This document shows positions 4,761 to 64,000 of a stretch of 64,000 nt of DNA, in pieces. The notes below the pieces were generated by a model, which ran no database searches, was not told where the DNA came from, and saw only the letters and a list, made by a program, of their open reading frames with translations. Each line of letters opens with the position of its first letter. Position 1 is the stretch's first letter. This DNA comes from Candidatus Buchananbacteria bacterium (GTDB lineage: Bacteria > Patescibacteriota > Patescibacteriia > 2-01-FULL-39-33). Both the position numbers and the translations under genes were made by a program. Location: positions 26,757 to 90,756 of the forward strand of contig JAUSEE010000033.1 in NCBI GenBank assembly GCA_030650095.1. Reading direction: 5' to 3'.

Positions 4761-6023
4761 ATGTCGGAAAATAAAAAATCAGCCAAAGGCAATTTAGCCC
4801 TAGGCCAGAAAATAGCTGTTATAAATTCAATTTACCAGCCCTACACCCGTGGCGGCGCCGAGGTGGTGGCGGGGAATATTGTAAGTGGCCTAAAAAATCA
4901 GGGCCATGATGTTTTTGTTATATCTTTGGGGTATGAGAATAAACTAAATTATATTGACGAAGTTAAATCTTGTCAGATCAAGCCTTTTAATTTTTTTAAT
5001 TTTTTGGATATCAACTTCCAGCCGGTTTGGCTTCGTTTTCTTTGGCATCCTCTTGATATGTTTAACGGTGTCCAAACTTGGCGTGTTTATAGGATTTTAC
5101 ATAAAGAAAAACCTGATTTGATTCTCACCCATAATTTGAAGGGGCTGGGCTATCTTCTTCCTTGGCTGATAAGAATGATGAAAATAAAGCACATCCACAG
5201 CATTCATGACATGCAACTTATTCATCCCTCCGGGCTTTTAAAAGAAGATGAAAAAATTAATTTTTTAGTGGCAATTTACTCTTGGCTCAACAAGCGATTA
5301 TTTAATAAGGTTGAATATGTTATTTTTCCTTCAAAGTATATAAAATCAATTTATGATAGATATAATTTTTTTAGCCAGGCTAATAAACTAGTCTTGGGGA
5401 ATCCGGTTATTATCCACCCCTTACCAAGGGGAGGGCGGGGAGGGGTTGCCGAAAGCATCGGTCAACCACCCCTTGCCACTCTTTGTAAAGAAGGGGATTT
5501 TCAAATTATTTTTTTAGGCCAAGTAGAGGAGTATAAGGGCATCTTTGATTTGATTGAAGCAGTCAAAAAAATAAAATCAAATTTTACCCTTCACATTGTG
5601 GGAGACGGTTCGGCTTTAGCTAGAGCTAAGGATGAAACCAAAGACGACGCTAGATTTAAGTTCCATGGGCGCTTATCTCACTCTGAATTGAAAGAAAAAA
5701 TTTGGCCCAATATTGATCTTTTGATAAATCCAACCAAAGTGGCGGAAAGTTTCGGTTTGGTTATTGTGGAAGCCTGGGTGTATCGCGTGCCGTCATTGGC
5801 TTCCAATATCGGAGCTATCCCCGAATTGATAGATGACGGCCAAACCGGCTGGCTGTTTGAATCTGGTGATATAGACGATCTTAGTAGCAAGATTAAAATC
5901 ATTTCCGACAATATTTGCGGCTTTCAAGCCATTGGCCTTTTAGGCCGGGAAAAAGCTAAGGAATTTAATATTGATAATTATTTGAACAGGCTGGAGGAAT
6001 TTGCTAAGATAAAACCAATTTAA
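4761..6023 (+). CDS. Glycosyltransferase family 4
   Basis: 420 aa; C-terminal ...ESFGLVIVEAWVYRVPSLASNIGAIPELIDDGQTGWLFESGDIDDL (GT4 E-x7-E region). Contains an unusual GC-rich in-frame segment (RGGRGGVAESIGQPPLA). Confidence 0.75.
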   Translation: MSENKKSAKGNLALGQKIAVINSIYQPYTRGGAEVVAGNIVSGLKNQGHDVFVISLGYENKLNYIDEVKSCQIKPFNFFNFLDINFQPVWLRFLWHPLDMFNGVQTWRVYRILHKEKPDLILTHNLKGLGYLLPWLIRMMKIKHIHSIHDMQLIHPSGLLKEDEKINFLVAIYSWLNKRLFNKVEYVIFPSKYIKSIYDRYNFFSQANKLVLGNPVIIHPLPRGGRGGVAESIGQPPLATLCKEGDFQIIFLGQVEEYKGIFDLIEAVKKIKSNFTLHIVGDGSALARAKDETKDDARFKFHGRLSHSELKEKIWPNIDLLINPTKVAESFGLVIVEAWVYRVPSLASNIGAIPELIDDGQTGWLFESGDIDDLSSKIKIISDNICGFQAIGLLGREKAKEFNIDNYLNRLEEFAKIKPI

Positions 6024-6166
6024 AAATGAACCCGTCCCCGCTCTAAAGAGCGGGGTATCTGGGCGGTTTCAAATGGAGGGTGTCGGCTCCGCCGACGTAT
6101 TTCTCCTCACACTGCCCTTCATCCCCTGGCTTAAAAGCCAGGGGTATTCGGGCAGCAACATTATAA
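6024..6166 (+). repeat. GC-rich three-hairpin intergenic repeat element, copy 1 (full length)
   Basis: Starts 1 nt after the stop of the 4761..6023 CDS. Hairpins ccccgctctaaagagcgggg, gtcggctccgccgac, cccctggcttaaaagccagggg. Near-identical reverse-complement copy at 55767-55912; short copy at 14996-15049. Confidence 0.8.
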
Positions 6167-6295
6167 ATTTAAATTATAGGAAAAATATTTTGGTGGTTTT
6201 AATTTCTATTGACGTATTATTCTATTTTTGCTAACATAATAAATAAGTCAATTTTAGGTGCATTATGATTGGTTGTAAACAACTGGAGAAAGGCC

Positions 6296-13353: not shown

Positions 13354-14256
13354 ATGAGAAAAGGCATTTATCTGGTTTTAATCACGGCCGTGATTTCCGG
13401 CCTGTCAATTTTTTTTAATAAGTTTGCCTTAGAGGCTTTGGGTAAAAATGCTTACCAGTATACCACTTTAAAAAATATCATTCCGGCCGTTTTGTTATCA
13501 TTTCTAATTCTAACGCCGTTTATTTTTCCCAAGCTTAAAAAGTTAAATAAAGGCCAGTGGCTAAAATTATTTTTAATCGGCTTAATCGGCGGCAGTGTTC
13601 CGTTTTTATTATTTTTTAAGGGTATGAGCCTAACCTCGGCGGTTGGTGCTGCCTTTATCCATAAAACCCTTTTCATTTGGGTCGCCATACTGGCTTGGCC
13701 GCTGCTTAAAGAAAAACTGGGAAAGATACAGCTTCTGGCTCTTTTGATACTTGTTGGCAGTACTTTTATTTTCGGCGGATTTAAATATTTCAGCTGGGGG
13801 TATGCGCATAGCTTAATTTTAGCGGCCACTGTCTTGTGGGCGGTTGAAAGCATAATAGCTAAAATTATCCTGCGCGATCTTGATTATCTTTTAGTGGCTT
13901 GGGGACGGATGTTTTTTGGTTCGCTTATTTTAATCGGATTTTTAGTATTTACCAAAAATACCGGCGGCCTTTTGACAATTGATTTATCCCAATTTCTCTG
14001 GCTGGGTTTGGTAGGGCTATTTTTAACCGGTTATGTTATTAGCTGGTATAGCGCTCTGCAAAAATTGCCGGTAACGGTGGTGTCATCATTTTTAGTTTTG
14101 GCTTCGCCTCTAACCACCTTGTTGAATAATTTATTTATCACTCATCAATTTCCCAGCAAAGATATTTTAGGACTGGCAACTGTCCTGGTCGCTCTTATTT
14201 TATTATGGCAATTTAAACCGATAAAAAAATATGAATTCAATACCAAGTCAATTTGA
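13354..14256 (+). CDS. EamA/DMT-family transporter (10-TM permease)
   Basis: 300 aa, two tandem 5-TM EamA-like halves. Confidence 0.55.
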   Translation: MRKGIYLVLITAVISGLSIFFNKFALEALGKNAYQYTTLKNIIPAVLLSFLILTPFIFPKLKKLNKGQWLKLFLIGLIGGSVPFLLFFKGMSLTSAVGAAFIHKTLFIWVAILAWPLLKEKLGKIQLLALLILVGSTFIFGGFKYFSWGYAHSLILAATVLWAVESIIAKIILRDLDYLLVAWGRMFFGSLILIGFLVFTKNTGGLLTIDLSQFLWLGLVGLFLTGYVISWYSALQKLPVTVVSSFLVLASPLTTLLNNLFITHQFPSKDILGLATVLVALILLWQFKPIKKYEFNTKSI

Positions 14257-14995
14257 CGGCACAATTCTAGCCGCTCGCTACGCTTTTATGCCCAATAAAT
14301 TAAGGTATTGCGGCGGCGATAAAAACAGCGATATTTTTGATTATGTGACCCAAGATTCAAGCGACGGCGGCTTAAATGAACTGCTGAAGGAATTTGCCAC
14401 CATGTATCCGTATTTAAGATTGATTGCCGAGTCCAGTGGCATAATCAATCCTTTTGATTATAGAGTGGTCGAAGCTTATTGGCTGGGCAATGATCTTTTA
14501 AATAATGTGGATATGAAGAATTTTTATCGCTATATGATAGATGAACAAAAGTTAAAAAAAAGTTTCAAACCGAAATTACTTGATAAAGTTTTTGGCAAAA
14601 TTCCCTTGGGAGCCAAGCCGCACCATAGCTGGCATGTTTTAAATATCCCCAAGCGTACTGGCCATTACCCCGTTGAGCATACACTAGAAACTATGGATAA
14701 ATGCCGTATTAGCTGGGGCAAGATAAAAGAAATAAAATCCGATTCCGGTGATTTGACCACTAAGGCTATAGTTGAATACGAGCCGCTGGTTATTAAAGAA
14801 AACAGATTGGTTTTGGGCGATCTAATCGATAAAGAGGTTTGGCTGGGCTGGGACAAAAAAACATTTATCAATACTGCTAAGCCTGGTGATTTGGTTTCTA
14901 TCCATTGGGATTGGGTTTGTGATTATTTGACAGCCGGCCAATTTAATAATTTAAAAAAATGGACTCAGTATAATCTGAATTTAAGCAATCTGTAA
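14231..14995 (+). CDS. Hypothetical protein (254 aa)
   Basis: Overlaps the upstream gene by 26 nt; no recognisable motif; lies inside the hydrogenase neighbourhood. Confidence 0.45.
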   Translation: MNSIPSQFDGTILAARYAFMPNKLRYCGGDKNSDIFDYVTQDSSDGGLNELLKEFATMYPYLRLIAESSGIINPFDYRVVEAYWLGNDLLNNVDMKNFYRYMIDEQKLKKSFKPKLLDKVFGKIPLGAKPHHSWHVLNIPKRTGHYPVEHTLETMDKCRISWGKIKEIKSDSGDLTTKAIVEYEPLVIKENRLVLGDLIDKEVWLGWDKKTFINTAKPGDLVSIHWDWVCDYLTAGQFNNLKKWTQYNLNLSNL

Positions 14996-15049
14996 AAATG
15001 AACCCGACCCCGCTCTAAAGAGCGGGGTATTCGGGCAGCAACATTATAA
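14996..15049 (+). repeat. GC-rich repeat element, short copy (first hairpin + 3' tail only)
   Basis: aaatgaacccgaccccgctctaaagagcggggtattcgggcagcaacattataa equals copy 1 minus the internal segment bounded by the ggggtatYYgggc direct repeat. Immediately after the stop of the 14231..14995 CDS. Confidence 0.75.
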
Positions 15050-15053
15050 AAAA

Positions 15054-15075
15054 AGCTGCTATTTTTCTAGCAGCT
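15054..15075. terminator. Palindromic hairpin (agctgcta...tagcagct), probable bidirectional terminator
   Basis: 8-bp perfect stem flanked by A-run (5') and T-run (3'), between convergent genes. Confidence 0.4.
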
Positions 15076-15634
15076 ATTTGCTTGTTTTTTTGATGACGAT
15101 TTGATAGTGGTAATCAATGCCCGACCAAATACACACGAGCGATAATAATATTCCGCCTATCCAGTAGAAAAAGCCGTTTAAGAAATGAAATATTTCAAAG
15201 TTGCCGTTTTCCACCGGCATCAAAAAAATAAAAATACACATCAAAGGCAAGCTAACGGCTGTTTTGATTCTGCCTGATAGTTTGGCCGGAATCGGTTTAC
15301 TGGACACACTCCTTAAATGAGTTGAGGTGATATCTTTAAGAAATAGCAAGGCCACCGGGATAAAATGGATCATACTCATAGCCACTAGCGGCAAGTAAAG
15401 AGTTGTCAGCCACTTATCAGCCAAAGGATCATAGGTTTTTCCGAAATCGGAAATGCAATTGAATTTTCGAGCATACCAGCCGTCCAGACAATCAGTCAAA
15501 CAAACTACTAATACTAGAAATATGACCAAGAGATGTATTTTAGGCGATGTCTGGGCAAAATAAAGCAGTATTAAAAGGGGCGGGGTTAAAATTAACCGCG
15601 TTGTAGTTAAAATATTTGGTATCTGGTTTTTCAA
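15074..15634 (-). CDS. CDP-alcohol phosphatidyltransferase (PgsA-like)
   Basis: 186 aa; motif DCLDGWYARKFNCISDFGKTYDPLADK = D-x2-D-G-x2-A-R-x8-G-x3-D-x3-D. Confidence 0.8.
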   Translation of the reverse strand: MKNQIPNILTTTRLILTPPLLILLYFAQTSPKIHLLVIFLVLVVCLTDCLDGWYARKFNCISDFGKTYDPLADKWLTTLYLPLVAMSMIHFIPVALLFLKDITSTHLRSVSSKPIPAKLSGRIKTAVSLPLMCIFIFLMPVENGNFEIFHFLNGFFYWIGGILLSLVCIWSGIDYHYQIVIKKTSK

Positions 15635-53605: not shown

Positions 53606-55669
<2,064 letters not shown>

Positions 55670-55766
55670 TTAGACCTTATTTTACTAATAATTTATGGTT
55701 TAATTTTATCAAATTCAAGAGTTTTCAGCAAGTCTAAAATACCCCCATAATCACTTATAAAACAGC

Positions 55767-55912
55767 TTATAATGTTGCTGCCCGAATACCCCTGGCTTTT
55801 AAGCCAGGGGACGGGGGGCAGTGTGAGGAAAAATACGTCGGCGGAGCCGACACCTTCCATTTGAAACCGCCCGGATACCCCGCTCTTTAGAGCGGGGTCG
55901 GGTTCATTGAAA
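55767..55912 (-). repeat. GC-rich three-hairpin repeat element, copy 3 (full length, reverse orientation)
   Basis: Reverse complement matches 6024-6166 over ~140 nt with a few substitutions. Lies directly after the stop of the minus-strand CDS 55996..56430 and upstream of gyrB. Confidence 0.8.
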
Positions 55913-55995
55913 TTCTTATTTCAAATAAAAAATGCCAACTTGGTTGGCATTATGGTTTATGTCTTAGAGCGCGAATGTCTCTGATTCAATTAGTT

Positions 55996-56430
55996 TTATT
56001 CTTTTTCAGTTTCAGGCCCTTTCCTGGCCCGCCTTTTTTTAGGGCCAGCATCGTTTTTTGGGTCTGCTGTTTCAAACTTGGCTACCGAAAGTTGAATGAA
56101 ATTGTCTTCGCTAGCCGGTTTTATAGCCCAACCCGCCTGTTTTAAAACTCTTATTACTTTGGTTCTTTCATCCCTTTGCTTCGGGCTGATAGCTAAAACC
56201 GCCAGAGTCATCGGTTCCGGATTTTCCGGATTGATTACAACCAGGGCGTTACGTCTGTTTATTTCTATCTCCAAAGCCAAAGAAAACATCAAGCGAGTCA
56301 GCATTTTGGGCGCTTCCGCCTGCTCCAATAATTCGGCTTTATTTATCAATTCGGGAAATGTTCTTAGTAAATCACCCGGATTTATAATGGTATCCGGTTT
56401 GATATTATTGTAGGAATCATTGTACTTCAT
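55996..56430 (-). CDS. Hypothetical protein (144 aa), basic C-terminus; located just upstream of gyrB
   Basis: ORF; position equivalent to DUF721/DciA-type genes that often precede gyrB, but no motif confirmed. Confidence 0.4.
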   Translation of the reverse strand: MKYNDSYNNIKPDTIINPGDLLRTFPELINKAELLEQAEAPKMLTRLMFSLALEIEINRRNALVVINPENPEPMTLAVLAISPKQRDERTKVIRVLKQAGWAIKPASEDNFIQLSVAKFETADPKNDAGPKKRRARKGPETEKE

Positions 56431-62783: not shown

Positions 62784-63074
62784 ATGGAAAATCAAAATCA
62801 ACCTCCAGTTCAAGAAATTAAAATCGCTGATAATTTGGCCGGCGGCGAATATGCCAATGCCATGCAAGTGGCGCACACCAAAGACGAAGTGCTCTTAACT
62901 TTTTTTAATATTATTTCGCCATCAGGCCGTGTTTGTGCTAAAATTATTACCAGTCCGGGACACTTGAAGCGCATGATCGCTGCTTTAAATGAAAATTTAA
63001 AAAGATACGAAGAAAAGTTTGGCCTAGTTGAGGCATCTGAAAGTCCCAAGGAGAGCATAGGGTTTAAGGTTTAA
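62784..63074 (+). CDS. Hypothetical protein (96 aa)
   Basis: ORF; no motif. Confidence 0.35.
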   Translation: MENQNQPPVQEIKIADNLAGGEYANAMQVAHTKDEVLLTFFNIISPSGRVCAKIITSPGHLKRMIAALNENLKRYEEKFGLVEASESPKESIGFKV

Positions 63075-63083
63075 TGTTTAATC

Positions 63084-63149
63084 GTCATTGCGAGCCTGCG
63101 AAGCAATCCCAGGGGATCGCCACGGTCGCTTGCGCTCTCTCGCGATGAC
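63084..63149. repeat. Nested-hairpin repeat, family B copy 2 (GTCATTGCGAGC...AAGCAATCC...TCGCGATGAC)
   Basis: Same outer stem as 43280-43357 (one G-U change) and the same AAGCAATC inner motif; 10 nt before the dnaJ ATG. Confidence 0.7.
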
Positions 63150-63159
63150 ATATTAAGTT

Positions 63160-64000
63160 ATGGCAAAAGACTATTACGCTATTTTGGGTGTTAAGAAAGA
63201 TGCGACTCAAGATGAAATAAAAAAAGCTTTTCGGAAATTGGCTCATGAGCATCACCCGGATAAGGAACATGGCAACGCTGATAAATTCAAAGAAATAAAC
63301 GAAGCCTATCAGACAGTTGGCCATGAAGAGAAAAGAAAGCAATATGATCAATTCGGTTCGGCTTTTTCCGGCACTGGATCGGGCGGTTTTTCTAATTATC
63401 AAGATTTTGCCAGAGCTCAAGGGGGCAATCCTTTCGGCCAAGGTGGATTTTCCCAAGGCAATGTCAATTTTGATTTTGGCGATATGGGAGATTTGGGAGA
63501 TATTTTTGGCAGCTTTTTTGGCGGCAGTAGATCACAAGCCAAACAAGCCAAAGGTTCGGATATTGAAACAGAATTAAGCATTGATTTTGAAGAATCGGTT
63601 TTTGGCGTAGAAAGAAACATAGAATTAGCCAAAAGAATAATTTGCAAACATTGCCAAGGCAATGGAGCCGAACCAGGATCAAAAATAAACACTTGTAATA
63701 ATTGCCACGGCAGCGGAAAGATATCATCGGTCCAGCAAACTATTTTGGGCGCTTTTCAAACCCAAAGAGTTTGTCCCAATTGCCAAGGAGAGGGCAAGAC
63801 TTATGAAAAAAAATGCAAAATTTGCAGCGGCAGCGGCGTGGAATACGGCCAGGAACAGATAAAAATAAAAATTCCAGCCGGCATTGAAGACGGCCAGCAA
63901 ATCCGTTTGTCGGGCCGAGGGGAGTCTAACCCCAAAGGCTCGGCTGGCGATTTATATATAAATATACGAGTCAAAAAGAATCCCAAATTTAAAAGAAACG
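63160..64000 (+). CDS. dnaJ: Chaperone DnaJ (partial, 3' end beyond window)
   Basis: Not in ORF track (no stop in window). MAKDYYAILGVKKDATQDEIKKAFRKLAHEHHPDK J-domain with HPD, G/F-rich linker, CxxCxGxG repeats (CKHCQGNG, CNNCHGSG, CPNCQGEG, CKICSGSG). Confidence 0.85.
   Translation, partial: MAKDYYAILGVKKDATQDEIKKAFRKLAHEHHPDKEHGNADKFKEINEAYQTVGHEEKRKQYDQFGSAFSGTGSGGFSNYQDFARAQGGNPFGQGGFSQGNVNFDFGDMGDLGDIFGSFFGGSRSQAKQAKGSDIETELSIDFEESVFGVERNIELAKRIICKHCQGNGAEPGSKINTCNNCHGSGKISSVQQTILGAFQTQRVCPNCQGEGKTYEKKCKICSGSGVEYGQEQIKIKIPAGIEDGQQIRLSGRGESNPKGSAGDLYINIRVKKNPKFKRN

Follow-up and report, generated by a model that had tools for sequence, protein, structure and literature searches.

The IS200/IS605 insertion sequences and their gene-less derivatives are the described systems closest to the repeat considered here. 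In IS608, cleavage takes place on the left at TTAC, 19 nt 5' of the hairpin at that end, and on the right at TCAA, with a right spacing of 10 nt; a guide tetranucleotide located 5' of the hairpin foot, AAAG at the left end, recognises each of these sites (PMC3201880). PATEs, which consist of a left end and a right end with no genes, have been described in haloarchaea and Geobacillus (PMC4615843, PMC10055086), and they are said often to encode omega-RNAs, which are used in trans by TnpB (PMC10055086). PATE-derived RNAs, the tnpB-associated sotRNAs (RF02656) and the HgcC RNAs have a structural motif in common (PMC4615843), and HgcC RNAs have been reported in Thermococcus as transcripts within IS605-type transposase genes (PMC4247193).

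In this study we analysed a small palindromic repeat in a window of 64 kb (the whole stretch of DNA under analysis, G+C content 39%). We consider it highly probable that this repeat is a non-autonomous IS200/IS605 derivative, i.e., a PATE-type MITE that uses a TTTAT target and is composed of left and right ends only, without a gene. The preliminary description of this DNA had reported two near-identical full copies and a third, shorter copy, and this was borne out: copies 1 and 2 are 95% identical over 142 nt, the short copy 3 has both ends in common with them, and the 23-mer CCCCGCTCTAAAGAGCGGGGTAT around hairpin 1 and the 26-mer of the tail each occur exactly three times in the window and in 0 of 100 shuffles. 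The repeat is real, with a chance expectation of none for any copy. Its features are given below, with the strand being the putatively active ("top") strand, which is the reverse complement of the orientation used previously.

6026 to 6162, minus strand: copy 1, full 137-nt element, AATGTTGC...GGGTTCAT
6163 to 6167, minus strand: flanking target TTTAT of copy 1 (ATAAA on plus), outside the element
6123 to 6144, minus strand: left-end subterminal hairpin of copy 1 (hairpin 3 of the preliminary description), with compensatory changes in locus L001
6145 to 6148, minus strand: putative left guide tetranucleotide AATA of copy 1
6080 to 6098, minus strand: internal hairpin of copy 1 (hairpin 2 of the preliminary description), with an outer GGAG/CTCC stem
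6036 to 6055, minus strand: right-end subterminal hairpin of copy 1 (hairpin 1 of the preliminary description)
6056 to 6059, minus strand: putative right guide tetranucleotide GATA of copy 1
6026 to 6035, minus strand: 10-nt tail of copy 1, ACGGGTTCAT, which terminates in the putative cleavage motif TCAT
55771 to 55907, plus strand: copy 2, full 137-nt element
55766 to 55770, plus strand: target CTTAT of copy 2 (ATAAG on the opposite strand)
14998 to 15045, minus strand: copy 3, 48-nt one-hairpin derivative, in which the left leader up to AATA is joined directly to the right hairpin and tail
15046 to 15050, minus strand: target TTTAT of copy 3, which is the T-tail of the terminator hairpin 15054 to 15075

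The boundaries of the copies were fixed by analogy with filled/empty site comparisons in a 108-nt sister family (described below), and because of these comparisons the ATAAA beside the window copies (ATAAG at copy 2) is taken as pre-existing target and not as part of the element. The foot of the left hairpin of copy 1 is then 18 nt from the target. The three hairpins previously proposed for each full copy agree with the predicted folds, in which copy 1 reaches a minimum free energy of -70.6 kcal/mol (z = -7.9) and copy 2 one of -70.0 kcal/mol (z = -6.2), both z-scores being relative to dinucleotide shuffles, with three strong hairpins each. Between these two copies, hairpin 2 shows a G-C to A-U change in its stem extension with the pairing kept. 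A covariation check, as had been recommended, gave four base pairs with double compensatory changes, located in the left hairpin and its outer stem (RNAalifold, five window-type sequences). Since the left hairpin was misaligned in its 3' arm when MAFFT was applied to the window type and the sister family together, the covariation of this hairpin was taken from unique sequences and from RNAalifold on the window type only, while the right hairpin is invariant because it served as the search key.

Copy 3 equals a full copy minus all sequence between its two GGGGTATYYGGGC repeats, exactly as expected from the deletion between direct repeats that had been suggested earlier, and it is probably an immobile one-hairpin deletion product. 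It may represent a dead-end that arose when the two GCCC(R)RATACCCC segments, which lie ahead of the hairpins and are nearly identical, recombined or slipped. A tiny ORF (ATGAACCCG...) was also considered and rejected, as its frame is not kept in locus L003.

Further copies, which the preliminary description had proposed to look for, were found in other genomes. A scan with the hairpin-1 23-mer, limited to one genome per species, returned four loci, whose records are labelled Patescibacteria, Candidatus Buchananbacteria and Gammaproteobacteria (two low-G+C MAGs), and three of the four carry a window-type element at 82-88% identity. These relatives are set between unrelated housekeeping genes (FtsZ/ribonucleotide reductase, FemAB/LeuRS, RuvC/GalT) with dissimilar flanks. 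The element is present in at least four genomes, in intergenic settings that are unrelated to one another. Identity among copies of the window (95%) exceeds their identity to window-type copies elsewhere (82-88%), a pattern that recent transposition would produce. A window-type variant of 197 nt was also observed (L004:1030-1232, also in L098 and L122), with an extra internal segment of about 60 nt that has hairpins of its own (TCCCGA.../...TCGGGA). The hairpin 23-mer had no match in a scan of viral contigs, and in BLAST searches of phages and plasmids the window element had chance-level matches only, with no significant direct match to an annotated IS.

Most of what can be said about target and mobility comes from the sister family, which accounts for most of the at least 120 loci obtained in a metagenome scan with the hairpin-1 key. 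Read on the strand of the preliminary description, sister and window type have the same first hairpin, the ATGA start and the TTATAAA end, and they differ in the middle; the last (left-end) hairpin of the sister family is variable, with at least six different versions, all perfectly paired. The target is strict. At least 63 distinct sister insertion sites were found, every one 3' of TTTAT, and among the matches listed TTT occupies positions -5 to -3 in 63/63 distinct sites, the AT at -2/-1 being imposed by the site-finding pattern. Window-type sites have TTTAT in five cases and CTTAT in the sixth, with positions further out unconstrained.

Six independent filled/empty pairs were recovered among the loci retrieved, all of the sister family and none of the 137-nt window type (e.g., L025 vs L023/L045, and L009/L071 vs L018/L070). 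They are seamless: the filled allele is the empty allele plus exactly 108 nt, placed immediately 3' of TTTAT, with the element reading AAC...GTCAT on the strand opposite to that of the preliminary description. One of the readings offered there, a miniature mobile element with target preference, fits well with the unrelated contexts in at least four genomes, the TTTAT flank and this filled/empty polymorphism of the sister family. For copy 1, the proposed model would predict an empty allele in which ...TTTAAAA is joined directly to ATAAATTT...; no such allele was recovered via the two flanking genes of copy 1, which were found in the same sample only, on contigs broken at the repeat. Two short-read contigs of that sample (L128 and L129, SRR13727527) break within copy 1, L128 ending 22 nt after hairpin 1, which agrees with an element that has several copies in that genome and fragments assemblies.

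Rickettsia palindromic elements (RPE) are palindromic elements of about 100 nt, with a length that is a multiple of three, which lie in frame inside essential genes. The 108 nt of the sister element equal 36 codons, and the element is open in one frame on each strand. In-frame sister inserts are present in TsaD, BacA/UppP, GATase, GT2 and ATP-grasp genes (L043:1277-2443; L025:3276-4274 vs L023; L089, L077 and L050; none in the window). The Pfam match of the TsaD carrying the insert is split around it, and BacA/UppP has two inserts in one allele and one in another. The sister element also brings stops into 13 of 25 sites where its removal restores a long ORF, and the five restored ORFs checked against Pfam are all real genes: MFS transporter, radical SAM/SPASM, HsdS, methyltransferase and HAD (gene-disrupting copies in L067, L079, L014, L099, L115 and others). 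The MFS gene is uninterrupted in other samples (L019/L084), which indicates recent activity of the sister family.

Before the origin of the element is discussed, its position relative to genes has to be considered, as the preliminary description had also raised a 3'UTR element and had stated that all copies begin 1-3 nt after a stop codon. In such a reading, the repeat would be a cis-acting module (a terminator, an mRNA stabiliser or a REP-like sequence) selected for its place after the stops of co-oriented genes. The statement is correct for copies 1 and 3, which begin 2 nt past the stops of co-oriented genes (the GT4 glycosyltransferase gene 4761-6023, with the stop ending at 6023, and the DUF6390 protein gene 14231-14995, with the stop ending at 14995), but not for copy 2, which lies 88 nt beyond the nearest upstream ORF, 55996-56430 (minus), and upstream of gyrB, 53606-55663 (minus), with the terminator-like hairpin 55931-55951 separating it from that ORF. 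The very stable hairpins would suit a 3'UTR module, and so would hairpin 2 with the T-rich run that follows it, which scores as terminator-like. However, the window-type copies in L001 and L003 are antisense to both of their neighbours, the orientation relative to neighbouring ORFs is mixed across the 73 distinct related sites among the matches listed, with neither position nor orientation fixed, and sister copies lie inside genes and disrupt them. With its orientation mixed and its sites scattered, the element is a dispersed repeat, and a 3'UTR module defined by its position does not describe it. Copies 1 and 3 are close to stops because the target ATAAA is common in A-rich sequence after TAA and in the T-tails of terminators, and the TTTAT target fully accounts for their position, so we regard a cis-acting 3'UTR function as very unlikely and do not uphold it as the defining property of the repeat.

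Several observations on the surroundings of the copies can be added. Copy 3 follows exactly on the TTTAT with which the terminator T-tail of the convergent gene 15074-15634 (minus) closes, and the hairpin and T-tract of this terminator are intact. GC skew is positive in 15 of 16 4-kb bins, the sole dip being over the minus-strand gyrB block at 52-56 kb, which suggests that the whole window belongs to a single replichore whose leading strand is plus. For IS200/IS605 elements, the top strand would be expected preferentially on the lagging-strand template; the top strand of the window copies is on minus in two cases and on plus in one (n = 3), and no consistent orientation with respect to the direction of replication deduced from GC skew is seen in these three copies. 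A second small repeat, unrelated to the first, was noticed at window positions 63079-63150 (plus), with terminal inverted repeats GTCATTGCGAG...CTCGCGATGAC, flanked by ORF 62784-63074 and a dnaJ-like ORF starting near 63160. An 87% identical copy of it (L003:4221-4296) lies within a FemAB-family ORF of an unrelated MAG, and it is probably a classical inverted-repeat MITE.

The anatomy of the ends relates the element to IS200/IS605, and the earlier statement that it is unrelated to any element that can be named is therefore not retained, given this anatomy together with weak Rfam matches to HgcC (see below). On the top strand, the order in the window type is: TTTAT target, 18 nt ending in AATA, left hairpin, GATGAA, internal stem, GATA, right hairpin, and a 10-nt tail ending in TCAT. 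Subterminal imperfect palindromes are present at both ends in the same orientation, and terminal inverted repeats are absent. The left hairpin foot is 18 nt away from the target in the window type, as against 17 nt in the sister family; at the other end, 10 nt separate the right hairpin foot from the element end.

When the sister element was compared with plasmids by BLAST, its right end matched more than 1,100 records. The best match was in Halorussus halophilus (NZ_CP044525, 89.5% over 38 nt, E = 3e-3), covering the right-end hairpin of the sister family and AGGATGTCAT; it begins 14 nt after an annotated tnpB stop, downstream of an IS200/IS605 tnpA, in the orientation predicted. The left end of the Halorussus element consists of TTAC, 19 nt ending in AAAG, a hairpin and ATGAAG, and its right end of GAAT, CCCCGCGCTTTAGCGCGGGG and AGGATGTCAA, with a right spacing of 10 nt. 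The left-end motif of a hairpin followed by GATGAA is common to the Halorussus element as well. The right hairpin here differs from that of Halorussus in one compensated pair (CCCCGCTC/GAGCGGGG vs CCCCGCGC/GCGCGGGG). The 10-nt tail is near-identical to that of Halorussus in the sister family, whereas the window type has that hairpin but not that tail; the tie of the window type to a tnpA-tnpB element is thus indirect, via the sister family, with which it has an identical right hairpin, the target and the TCAT tip in common. As a side observation, a Klebsiella pneumoniae plasmid (CP031372.2, 178169-178206, L125) carries an unannotated remnant of a tnpB 3'-end (...DVNDAKNILAAG...) followed by a right-end hairpin and AGGATGTCAA; the same tnpB-remnant/right-end, which resembles the right end of the present elements, is found on about 975 other Klebsiella plasmid records.

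The putative guides and cleavage motifs can be compared in the same way. TTAT and AATA pair at 4 of 4 positions, and TCAT and GATA at two positions plus one wobble. The pairs are TTAC/AAAG and TCAA/GAAT in Halorussus vs TTAT/AATA and TCAT/GATA here, with the fourth position changed from C-G to T-A at the left end and from A-T to T-A at the right end. Guide and cleavage motif thus covary, which matches the prediction of the guide/cleavage-site pairing rule.

By analogy with IS608, we infer that a TnpA acts on the element in trans by a single-stranded route. A Y1 HUH transposase (TnpA) supplied from elsewhere would bind both subterminal hairpins on the single-stranded top strand, and the 4 nt located 5' of the hairpin feet (AATA at the left, GATA at the right) would serve as guides by base-pairing to the motifs that are cleaved, i.e., TTAT of the flanking target and TCAT of the right tip. 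The strand would then leave as a circle and be pasted 3' of another TTTAT, without duplication.

No gene for such an enzyme was detected close to the copies. In tblastn of Halorussus TnpA and TnpB against the 64-kb window and about 930 kb of related loci there was no homolog (best E = 0.22), and neither a zinc-finger screen of long ORFs nor a HUH/Y motif screen of the window and related loci revealed an autonomous partner. HMMER with the 41-residue top-strand frame of copy 1, in which a TnpB C-terminus had been hoped for, gave nothing relevant against the full library; it matched four long proteins only (856-1656 aa), three of them in 4-5 separate stretches.

Short, GC-rich, palindromic, multi-copy repeats with no transposase nearby also bring to mind REP/REPIN sequences, which would be moved by a RAYT, a domesticated Y1 transposase, and would not be IS-derived. 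As RAYTs are likewise Y1 HUH enzymes, much of the chemistry would be alike. However, the two hairpins are in direct and not inverted orientation, the asymmetric geometry of 18 and 10 nt fits IS ends, the right end resembles the end of a tnpA-tnpB element, a conserved GTAG-type head is not seen, and a search of the window and the roughly 930 kb of related loci for RAYT-like genes was negative. A REP/REPIN origin therefore seems quite improbable to us, and derivation from IS200/IS605 ends is preferred.

With regard to RNA families, Rfam at gathering thresholds gave no match over the whole window, and ARAGORN found no tRNA or tmRNA. At permissive settings, HgcC (RF00062) matched the two full window copies at full length on the predicted strand with 22.3 and 16.7 bits (E = 0.002 and 0.06), and the sister family, likewise at full length and on the predicted strand, with 30.5 bits (E = 1.3e-5). 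The same elements follow in the same order on the same strand: hairpin, GAUGA..GAAC, internal stem, CCCCGC.CUUUAG.GCGGGG, and AGGA.GUCA. However, HgcC is archaeal, and scores of 16.7-30.5 bits compare with a gathering threshold of 50, so the likeness to HgcC and omega-RNA predicted in this way is one of architecture and not of membership. The complete Halorussus element gave no Rfam match at E <= 0.01, which suggests that HgcC-type models need both ends adjacent. If the top strand is transcribed, the product may be an HgcC-like or omega-RNA-like RNA for TnpB in trans. A sigma-70-like promoter match (TTAAAA, 18 nt, TATAAT) is located in the flanking DNA at 6173-6202 (minus) and directed into the top strand of copy 1; it could drive such a transcript, or it is possibly a chance match in AT-rich DNA.

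These RNA-like traits might alternatively mean that the repeats are copies of an HgcC-like small ncRNA gene kept for a cellular function, and not transposon copies. The weak full-length HgcC matches, the covarying stems and the promoter-like site just upstream of the top strand of copy 1 are in line with this, but the filled/empty polymorphism and gene disruption show mobility, the window copies are 95% alike vs 82-88% to copies of other genomes, a 48-nt truncated copy exists, and every score is under the Rfam threshold, so that we give this explanation very little weight. The filled/empty junctions formally fit a 2-bp AT target duplication and no duplication alike, but a classical cut-and-paste MITE of a DDE transposon with such a duplication is hardly credible, as terminal inverted repeats are lacking at the ends (AATGTTGC... 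and ...GGGTTCAT), conservation of the flank is asymmetric with TTTAT on one side only, and the hairpin/guide architecture and the IS200/IS605 right-end similarity point elsewhere.

With the IS200/IS605-derived element as the preferred reading, an anonymous repeat becomes an element with a defined TTTAT target, defined ends and a testable mechanism. For annotation, this means that its copies are better treated as mobile DNA and masked, instead of being called as small ORFs or regulatory RNAs, and for assembly, that it is a cause of breaks in these metagenomes, where same-sample contigs end inside copy 1. The sister family is a clean natural experiment on the tolerance of hairpin transposons in essential genes of reduced genomes. 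If a partner TnpA or TnpB is found, the repeat family would offer a natural IS608-like system with altered TTAT/TCAT specificity.

To speculate further, and with rather less than even confidence, the repeats could belong to an active, undescribed IS200/IS605-derived PATE lineage of small low-G+C genomes (some labelled Patescibacteria) that uses a TTTAT target. Its 108-nt form would persist as an in-frame insert of 36 residues in TsaD and BacA/UppP, as RPEs do, its copies might supply omega-RNA-like guides to TnpB in trans, and the 137-nt window copies would be an intergenic branch.

Compared with RPEs, the likeness is limited to the sister family, with its in-frame inserts of 108 nt, a multiple of three, in the essential genes TsaD and BacA. 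In contrast, the full window copies have 137 nt and none of the three window copies lies within a gene, so that they do not resemble RPEs in this respect. The sister family disrupts the gene in roughly half of the cases where it has inserted into one and, unlike in RPEs, its origin from IS200/IS605 ends is evident. With IS608 and the Halorussus element, the repeat has in common the hairpins at both ends, the specific short target and the insertion 3' of it without duplication; it differs in having no tnpA or tnpB and only 137 nt in total, in its TTAT/TCAT cleavage motifs instead of TTAC/TCAA, with matching changes of the guides, in a target extended to TTTAT, and in its hosts, which include low-G+C Patescibacteria-type MAGs. 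The likeness to PATEs lies in the fused left and right IS200/IS605 ends, the multi-copy state, the presumed movement in trans and the potential as a source of omega-RNA-like transcripts, whereas the sequence family and the host group are new, and a 48-nt one-hairpin derivative is present.
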